Origin: a virus
Lineage: Duplodnaviria > Caudoviricetes
Reading direction: 5' to 3' (one strand)
Virus record (IMG/VR): IMGVR_UViG_3300027759_000044
Length of the DNA stretch: 64,000 bases
The position numbers and the translations under genes are program-made. The notes beneath the pieces are model-generated. The model did not search any database. It saw only the letters and a program-made list of their open reading frames with translations, and had not been told where the DNA came from. Shown here in pieces: positions 51,732-52,013 of this stretch. Position 1 is the first letter of the stretch; each line of letters starts with the position of its first letter.

Positions 51732-51764
51732 AAAAACCCCTGAGACTGTTAGTTCCCAGGGGTT
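51732..51764 (-). terminator. Intrinsic terminator (putative attenuator)
   Basis: AACCCCTGGGA/TCTCAGGGGTT 11-bp stem followed by TTTGCTTTT. Confidence 0.85.
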
Positions 51765-51791
51765 AGATAAAGTTGTTATGATGTTAACTTG

Positions 51792-51929
51792 TTACCTAGT
51801 CCCCGGGGTTCTCTCTTGGTTATCATTTGAACCGCGAATACTTGTTGGATATGCTGGTACAAAGGATACACTGGCTAATGACAGCCACTGTCCGGTGTGT
51901 TTCAACATGTTACAAGTTTTATTCATCAT
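51792..51929 (-). CDS. 45-aa leader peptide containing all 20 amino acids (not in track)
   Basis: MMNKTCNMLKHTGQWLSLASVSFVPAYPTSIRGSNDNQERTPGTR*; between promoters and terminator. Confidence 0.6.
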   Translation of the reverse strand: MMNKTCNMLKHTGQWLSLASVSFVPAYPTSIRGSNDNQERTPGTR

Positions 51930-51936
51930 AGTCTTT

Positions 51937-52013
51937 TATTTAGTCCTGGGTGCAAAATTTACACCTTTTCTCAATTCATGCTGAAGTATAGCATAGGTCG
52001 GAATTAATGTCAA
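51937..52013 (-). promoter_or_regulatory. Leader promoters: sigma70 (51985-52013) and late motif (51937-51944)
   Basis: TTGACA-17-TATACT; ACTAAATA 7 nt before ATG. Confidence 0.75.

Follow-up and report, generated by a model that had tools for sequence, protein, structure and literature searches.

A candidate ribosome-mediated attenuator with a residue-complete leader peptide at the head of a tRNA gene array in freshwater jumbo phages

Introduction

Why phages carry large sets of tRNA genes, and how they control them, are open questions. Phage tRNAs offset host defenses that cleave tRNA (PMC10264068, PMC11555353, PMC12409363). The locus examined here raises the question of whether such a set can be controlled according to the supply of charged tRNA. 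It lies in IMG/VR record IMGVR_UViG_3300027759_000044, a Caudoviricetes virus from which a stretch of 64,000 nucleotides (the window) was analyzed, and it consists of a promoter (P1), a 45-codon open reading frame (ORF) and an intrinsic terminator on the minus strand, followed by an array of tRNA genes. An earlier note on this DNA, drawn from the letters and their ORFs, had proposed that this leader unit is an attenuator gating the array by sensing the whole tRNA pool through a leader peptide with all 20 amino acids. We report that the leader unit contains a conserved pair of mutually exclusive RNA structures at the end of its ORF, and that its features point to a ribosome-dependent switch at the head of the tRNA array.

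Results

Terminator and antiterminator share one arm

More than 100 variants of the leader unit were found in lake metagenomes and IMG/VR contigs. Homologues of the 45-amino-acid (aa) product occur in lake metagenomes, a search with two conserved DNA words gave 55 loci in IMG/VR, and a profile search brought the family to 95 protein clusters, the most divergent at about 45% identity. The contigs of the relatives reach 350-520 kb, and the family is therefore one of uncultured freshwater jumbo phages, in which the element is widespread and not a one-off. A DNA search with 801 nt around the unit gave no match in a phage isolate collection, and the large neighboring protein had only one remote match there; thus, no cultured relative is available.

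The P1 transcript can fold in two ways near the end of the leader ORF (Table 1). One fold is the terminator, an 11-bp stem with six G-C pairs that begins 27 nt 3' of the leader stop codon. The other is an antiterminator, whose predicted 5' arm comprises the last four codons and the stop codon and whose predicted 3' arm includes the terminator 5' arm. The earlier note had described a pairing of the last codons with the terminator 5' arm and had argued that the two structures exclude each other. Both claims were borne out: the two structures have the CCCUGGG arm in common and are conserved and covarying, and the alternative pairing is larger than described, with two helices of 7 bp each and an energy of -20.9 kcal/mol in the window's copy, compared with -17.5 kcal/mol for the terminator.

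Homologues (n = 43) were folded up to the point before the terminator 3' arm is made. The antiterminator was found in all 43 close homologues, with a mean energy of -19.9 kcal/mol (z = -4.3 versus shuffles) next to a mean terminator energy of -17.1 kcal/mol, and also in three of four distant homologues, which answers the earlier note's proposal to look for it in related phages. Each of the 43 folds contains the outer helix CCCGGGG/CCCUGGG, an inner helix with the stop codon and a small apical hairpin. The antiterminator 5' arm begins four codons ahead of the stop codon, which lies within the antiterminator in 42 of the 43 close homologues; the exception is L061, where an extra G shifts it into the antiterminator loop. 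The antiterminator was judged from these per-sequence folds and not from column-wise pairs of the MAFFT alignment, where the register of clade B is shifted by two columns.

The inner helix covaries. In the window's clade it is UAGGUAA/UUAUCUA, while other clades have CGGAAUAA/UUAUUUUG, CU.GGUAA/UUAUC.AG, UAGGUAAAGU/AUUUUAUCUA or UUAAGUAAAC/GUUUAUUUAG, so that at least five different sequences occur and all are paired. The terminator shows eight double-sided compensatory changes from C-G to A-U. The CCCCGGGG arm is retained even though clades A and B read it in frames 1 nt apart (TPGTR versus PRGTE); it is read T-P-G in the window's clade and P-R-G in another, and compensating indels on either side keep the ORF open. 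Retention of the arm across this frame shift indicates selection both on the RNA arm and on ending the ORF inside it.

RNAalifold also identified a long-range helix between UAUGAUG, which holds both start codons, and CAUCAUA in the antiterminator loop. This 7-bp helix is paired in 43 of 43 homologues, with eight one-sided changes that are all to G-U and none that break it. Together with the adjoining AACUUG/CAAGUU pairing, the duplex averages -9.7 kcal/mol (mean z = -2.85). In codons 1-6, the synonymous and nonsynonymous polymorphism rates (pS and pN) are both about 0.02, which places the constraint on the nucleotides themselves, and the first codons appear to be frozen because the start region pairs with the antiterminator loop.

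Four ribosome states were modeled by constraint folding over the 43 homologues. With a ribosome at the stop codon, the antiterminator formed in none and the terminator in 40; with one ribosome stalled at codon 20 and another queued on the start, the antiterminator formed in 40 and the start-loop helix in none. The free full-length RNA gave the antiterminator in 7, the terminator in 35 and the start-loop helix in 31. In the modeled geometry, a ribosome at the end of the ORF would thus mask the antiterminator 5' arm. The fourth state, the free nascent RNA, is weighed in the Discussion.

The leader ORF is under coding constraint

No close homologue with the start motif (n = 43) has an interrupted leader ORF, and the same holds across the 109 unique peptides, with lengths of 42-50 codons; the indels of the ORF are frame-preserving among the close homologues and across the family. 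At the invariant residues K10, H11, G13, P28, R32, G33 and G43, variation is confined to the third codon position. The pooled pN/pS of the ORF is 0.59, with 0.36 in the FxPAYPTSIRG block (residues 23-33) and 0.65-0.70 in the variable parts. Because the frame stays open in every variant, indels stay in frame, changes fall at third positions and pN/pS is below 1, translation of the ORF is supported by its pattern of variation. A purely non-coding RNA is ruled out by the in-frame indels and third-position changes.

The earlier note had called the Shine-Dalgarno sequence weak, as it is (AGGA, 14 nt upstream of the start). This is no objection to translation, since about 60% of the phage's long genes have no Shine-Dalgarno sequence. 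It had also expected poor conservation of the peptide, which did not hold: the FxPAYPTSIRG core is kept, and MMNKTC forms a second conserved block. The 45-aa product has no Pfam or PHROG family match, and Pfam, PHROGs and the ESM Atlas yielded no function for it or for the product of the 55-aa ORF that follows the terminator.

Amino acid completeness exceeds tree-aware expectations

The counts of the earlier note for the leader ORF, 34 distinct codons and all 20 amino acids in 45 codons, were reproduced; no residue occurs more than five times and there is no regulatory codon run. Its suggested check against random 45-codon windows was run as well, and all 20 residues were found in 1.0%-1.3% of 45-residue windows, whether from real genes, all frames or random codons. 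Among the ORFs of 40-50 aa in the window (n = 87), two are complete in this sense. Taken by itself, the single sequence is not more complete than chance allows. Coverage of NNY/NNR codon half-boxes is 26-30 of 31 in the family (median 28). Windows of 45 codons from the phage's own genes cover 20.4±2.2 and none of those sampled reached 28, and random codons at the local base composition cover 22.8±1.8, with 0.36% reaching 28. In a single sequence this excess is a post-hoc observation, so the weight must come from the relatives.

All 20 residues are present in 40 of 43 close variants and in 96 of 109 unique peptides, even at 45%-50% identity, so the loss of completeness among homologues, which the earlier note had named as an outcome that would refute its proposal, was not seen. 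Conserved columns guarantee only 12 residue types. Expectations were obtained by simulating columns independently along a tree from a complete root, with each column's own residue frequencies and parsimony rates. On the nucleotide tree (43 tips), 24.1±8.1 complete sequences were expected and 40 observed (P = 0.011). On the protein tree (109 tips), 33.7±14.1 were expected and 96 observed, a value reached in 0 of 600 simulations. When only the 29 gap-free columns were simulated and the C-terminus was left as observed, the expectation was 48.8±13.1, and 0 of 1000 simulations reached 96. A column-shuffle test of completeness was discarded as evidence in favor of these simulations, as it ignores relatedness.

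Residues also appear to be relocated. The conserved Cys is lost in five peptides, two of which have a Cys elsewhere, against a background second-Cys rate of 3% (Fisher P = 0.016). The conserved Phe is absent from nine peptides, each of which has a Phe in the C-terminal part (two to three events), and in one clade the His shifts as KH.G.W becomes KQR.WH. Truly independent relocations are few. At the codon level, both Ser boxes occur in 38 of 38 ORFs (33.8 expected), both Arg boxes in 38 of 38 (25.6 expected) and both Leu boxes in 33 of 38 (21.7 expected), and the mean half-box coverage is 27.8 versus 26.8±0.5 under a codon-level tree-aware null (P = 0.015). Selection on completeness thus appears to have support that is real but not conclusive.

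The leader unit belongs to the tRNA array

Wherever a locus extends far enough downstream, an array of 7-35 tRNA genes follows on the same strand, its first gene 0.3-1.5 kb past the unit. The upstream genes differ among relatives (TctC-like, radical SAM, SPASM and others) and lie on the same or the opposite strand. With the array constant and the upstream genes differing, the unit is assigned to the tRNA array and not to an upstream operon. The possibility that the terminator merely ends an upstream operon was rejected on the same grounds: upstream genes are divergent or different in relatives while the unit is unchanged. Likewise, a precursor of a ribosomally synthesized and post-translationally modified peptide, suggested by the radical SAM and SPASM neighbors, was set aside, as these neighbors change in kind and strand from one relative to the next and the tRNA array does not. 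An Rfam scan of 43000-53000 at E <= 1 returned only tRNAs and chance matches, and nothing in 51730-52010.

The upstream cassette itself (52024-57006, minus strand, in the window; also seen at loci L001, L009, L071 and L075) contains genes for a TctC/Bug-like binding protein, a cupin, a PP-loop-like protein, and radical SAM and SPASM proteins. Its content and orientation vary between relatives, and the head of the tRNA array is fixed. An IMG/VR search with the upstream TctC-like protein found nothing, as the upstream genes are not conserved.

Layout of the unit and of the region downstream

The promoters, ORF and terminator listed in the earlier note were all present on re-reading, including a second promoter (P2) just 3' of the terminator (Table 1). 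Both P1 hexamers are kept in the homologue alignment. By eye, the 5' stem-loop is kept as a hairpin among relatives, with variable sequence and length, and the hairpin inside the ORF is a possible pause hairpin in the predicted fold.

Table 1. Features of the leader unit and of the tRNA array that it precedes (window coordinates)
Feature	Position	Strand	Remarks
Promoter P1, TTGACA-17-TATACT with TG	52013-51985	minus	11/12 consensus matches; strong sigma-70-type
P1 hexamer TTGACA	52013-52008	minus	17-nt spacer with TG
P1 hexamer TATACT	51990-51985	minus	
Predicted P1 transcription start	near 51978	minus	
5' stem-loop of leader transcript	51965-51949	minus	minimum free energy (MFE) fold
Nearly invariant translation-start region (segment S1)	51943-51913	minus	pairs with post-stop loop
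Start region, CTAAATA	51943-51937	minus	
Start region, UAUGAUG	51930-51924	minus	both AUGs
Start region, AACUUG	51918-51913	minus	
Leader ORF, 45 codons + TAA	51929-51792	minus	34 distinct codons, all 20 amino acids
ORF-internal hairpin, codons 13-21	51891-51868	minus	MFE fold; pair 148/157 with 6 double-sided changes
Antiterminator	51807-51755	minus	outer + inner helix, 7+7 bp
Antiterminator outer helix, CCCGGGG with CCCUGGG	51807-51801 with 51761-51755	minus	CCCUGGG = terminator 5' arm
Antiterminator inner helix, UAGGUAA with UUAUCUA	51798-51792 with 51770-51764	minus	stop codon included
Antiterminator loop, CAAGUU..CAUCAUA (segment S4)	51791-51777	minus	
Intrinsic terminator, AACCCCUGGGA / UCUCAGGGGUU then UUUUU	51764-51732	minus	11-bp stem, 51764-51735
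Promoter P2, TTGACA-17-TAGAAT	51714-51686	minus	directly 3' of terminator
55-aa ORF	51704-51537	minus	AUG (51704-51702) within P2 spacer
First tRNA block, Arg-acg through Arg-tcg	51309-50415	minus	
Whole tRNA array, 25 tRNAs	51309 down to 44089	minus	

TAAATA occurs 4-7 nt upstream of several starts in the window (25357, 39799, 41301, 49807/50394 on the minus strand, and 51929 on the minus strand, the start of the leader ORF); for other genes of the window it is found 17-21 nt upstream of the start. If these are late promoters of the T4 type, some of the late mRNAs would have little or no leader, and a late form of the leader ORF would be among them.

P2 is present in 37 of 42 relatives. At locus L017, it is intact though the overlapping 55-aa ORF is broken after five codons (read by eye), which argues that P2 is a real promoter and that the tRNAs do not depend on read-through. 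The claim of the earlier note that the unit gates the tRNA array therefore stands only in part: the unit is always at the array head, and with P2 so common, control of the array by the attenuator can be partial at most. P2 is missing in a few lineages (L021/L057/L064, L066/L070 and L072), where the attenuator may be the main gate.

The 55-aa ORF and P2 overlap (together 51537-51714, minus strand), and both are conserved. Since the AUG of this ORF is in the P2 spacer, upstream of the expected P2 start, its positions suggest that a full-length product would come only from transcripts that pass the terminator. In relatives, the ORF is called as a gene of 51-58 aa. It belongs to no known family, with only a weak match to phrog_7360.

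Contigs of four lake metatranscriptome runs (four studies) are confined to 51452-52014, and some bridge the terminator, as does one covering 51587-51866 with three mismatches. The upstream gene and 51235-51422 have no metatranscriptome contig cover. Such cover is consistent with transcription of the unit and a degree of read-through. In three RNA-library records, contig ends fall within 10 nt (51452-51462), past the 55-aa ORF and some 150 nt short of the first tRNA; a processing site or 3' end may lie here. A candidate for an additional promoter immediately ahead of the first tRNA was not retained, since its spacer, at about 20 nt, is too long.

Within the array, 48046-48127 (minus strand, 82 nt) scores 35.4 bits with the Rfam tRNA model and has no ARAGORN call; this could be tRNA number 26, perhaps a long-arm one such as Tyr. 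In related phages, ARAGORN called a tRNA with a four-base anticodon (caag; L016, 9189-9270) and a 92-nt tRNA-Ile(tat) with an unusual anticodon position (L014, 3659-3750; L036, 428-519; L037, 5158-5249; L047, 9065-9156), and these odd tRNAs may be intron-bearing or frameshift-suppressor-like. An HNH endonuclease gene (49807-50394, minus strand) also lies within the array, and HNH genes are similarly placed in relatives, which looks like homing-endonuclease traffic.

Discussion

Proposed mechanism

We propose that host RNA polymerase would start at P1 and produce a leader RNA of about 245 nt with the translated 45-codon ORF. A ribosome that keeps pace to the end of the ORF would cover the antiterminator 5' arm, so that the terminator forms and the transcript ends near 51732. 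A ribosome that lags or stalls in about the first 37 codons would instead let the antiterminator form first, with read-through into the 55-aa ORF and the first tRNA block, which are probably the direct target; this output would add to P2 transcription. If no ribosome is loaded, the start region would pair with the antiterminator loop and favor termination, as does the trp 1:2 pairing. The input would be overall decoding capacity, that is, any missing charged tRNA, and not a single amino acid. Overall decoding capacity is the most likely input because the leader has been kept with all 20 amino acids encoded and about 28 of 31 half-boxes covered.

The comparison shows the parts of the unit, their conservation and covariation, the coding signature, the link to tRNA arrays and the retained completeness; which way the switch works, its signal and the size of its effect are what we infer. 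A ribosome-dependent switch is likely on the conserved and covarying pairings. The fuller statement, a ribosome-mediated attenuator at the head of a phage tRNA array with overall decoding capacity as its input, is at best evenly balanced between right and wrong on the comparative evidence. It is nearly as probable, though we hold this more tentatively, that the leader has evolved as a test track for the whole tRNA pool, on which the loss of any charged tRNA raises the 55-aa protein and the phage tRNAs. Starvation or a host anticodon-nuclease defense would then delay the ribosome and favor the antiterminator, giving a self-correcting supply loop.

The completeness statistics and the place of the unit ahead of tRNA arrays speak for sensing of the whole tRNA pool. 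Several observations weigh against the proposed attenuator and its input. Judging from the ribosome footprint, a stall in the last seven to eight codons would mask the antiterminator and not free it; the only Glu codon of the window's copy (position 39) lies there, and thus not every amino acid can be sensed equally. A single codon would also be a weaker lever than the codon runs on which classical attenuators rely. The conserved FxPAYPTSIRG block is needless for a pure composition sensor, 13 of 109 peptides are without one to three residue types, and the null models assume independent columns and use trees from very short sequences. The free nascent RNA is nearly isoenergetic between its two folds (antiterminator in 26 of 43 homologues, start-loop helix in 16), and the default state is uncertain because these pairings compete. 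In L075, a distant relative, the terminator is present and a clear antiterminator is not. A consensus P2 directly follows the terminator in most relatives, and further promoters lie inside the array. Finally, the RNA-library contigs are without strand or transcript ends, and contaminating DNA is possible.

Alternative explanations

The alternative that survives best retains the same hardware as a generic gauge of ribosome-polymerase coupling or of translation initiation, with the full residue set a historical accident under site-wise constraint. All of the structural evidence applies to it equally, the conserved columns fix 12 residue types anyway, and pN/pS values of 0.36-0.7 are those of ordinary constraint; the tree-aware nulls that speak for selection come from simple models and short-sequence trees, and leader attenuators that sense translation in general are known, for example vmlR (PMC9226507). 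Against an accident, completeness is far above all three tree-aware nulls, Cys, Phe and His are relocated and not lost, and both Ser and both Arg boxes are present in every one of the 38 ORFs, with 26-30 of 31 half-boxes covered. We regard such a generic gauge as rather unlikely, with a real share of the probability left to it.

It is less probable still that the unit is a stand-alone early gene for a trans-acting 45-aa protein, in which the hairpin across the stop codon and the pairing of the start with 3' sequence set mRNA stability or limit translation to the nascent RNA and read-through is leakage. Conservation of FxPAYPTSIRG and MMNKTC would suit a protein, and the prevalence of P2 (37 of 42 relatives) would make the next unit self-sufficient. 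Peptides and RNAs derived from attenuators can also act in trans, as do peTrpL and rnTrpL (PMC7968998, PMC6614838). Against such a gene, two observations are hard to account for without a switch: retention of the CCCCGGGG arm across the frame shift, and an antiterminator that in all lineages is built on precisely the terminator 5' arm. The pN/pS of 0.59 is higher than would be expected of a functional protein, searches returned neither a family nor a fold, the codons are used differently from those of the phage's genes, and the fixed synteny with the tRNA array would have to be explained separately.

A sensor based on nascent-peptide arrest, of the TnaC or SecM type, would use the conserved block in the exit tunnel to stall termination and so fix the choice between terminator and antiterminator. 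Residues 23-33 sit 12-22 residues from the stop codon, the pN/pS of the block is 0.36, and known arrest peptides have tunnel-interacting motifs at such distances. The block has no sequence match to a known arrest motif and the residue completeness would be left unexplained, which makes this reading quite improbable. A type I toxin-antitoxin-like or dual-function small RNA, with the full-length mRNA silenced by 5'-3' fold-back and possibly by an antisense RNA from the invariant loop, is more improbable again: 3' sequence ties up the start region in the way that hok mRNA is inhibited by fold-back, and a weak promoter-like site lies on the plus strand (51753-51782, 9/12 matches), but the peptide is not hydrophobic (maximum 19-aa Kyte-Doolittle mean, 0.72), the antisense -10 lacks a conserved TG (read from the alignment), there is no convincing antisense terminator, and the antiterminator, the tRNA synteny and the completeness would all go unexplained.

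Comparison with known systems

In a limited literature library, we found no report of a decoding-capacity sensor at the head of a phage tRNA array or of a leader peptide selected for a complete amino acid set. Leader-peptide attenuation is a known class of mechanism, in which we did not find described the input proposed here, the start site as a competing segment, or the setting of a phage tRNA array.

T-box riboswitches also link tRNA charging to the choice between terminator and antiterminator; they differ in binding uncharged tRNA directly and in needing no ORF, and the Rfam scan gave no such match here at E <= 1. The hok-type mRNAs of type I toxins share a long-range pairing of 3' sequence with the start region, whereas the peptide here is no membrane toxin and the pairing falls within the antiterminator loop. 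Leader ORF attenuators for general translation inhibition include that of bmrCD. The leader ORF attenuator of vmlR likewise senses general translation inhibition (PMC9226507). In both, slowed or stalled leader translation is the signal and terminator read-through the output, as proposed here; they differ in responding to ribosome-targeting antibiotics and controlling resistance genes, and none of this type has been reported with a complete amino acid set or at the head of tRNA genes. The Sinorhizobium rnTrpL/peTrpL system (PMC6614838, PMC7968998) has no sequence relation to the leader unit. By analogy with it, the terminated leader RNA and the peptide could each be functional in their own right, and the conserved core of the peptide might be a consequence.

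The amino acid operon attenuators (trp, his, leu, thr, ilv, pheA) are alike in having a short leader ORF and an intrinsic terminator and antiterminator with one arm in common, and in the position of the ribosome near the stop codon choosing the structure, which is predicted here. The likeness extends to the trp 1:2 pairing, whose counterpart is a third pairing, that of the start region with the antiterminator loop. The leader unit differs from them in that it has no run of codons for a single amino acid and each of the 20 is present, its candidate region 1 is the translation start site and its peptide core is conserved. It is borne by a phage, a small ORF and tRNA genes lie downstream in place of biosynthetic enzymes, and a second promoter follows the terminator. 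If the proposed input is true, the leader unit would take leader-peptide attenuation beyond a single amino acid to the tRNA pool as a whole, and would offer a compact natural reporter of decoding stress.

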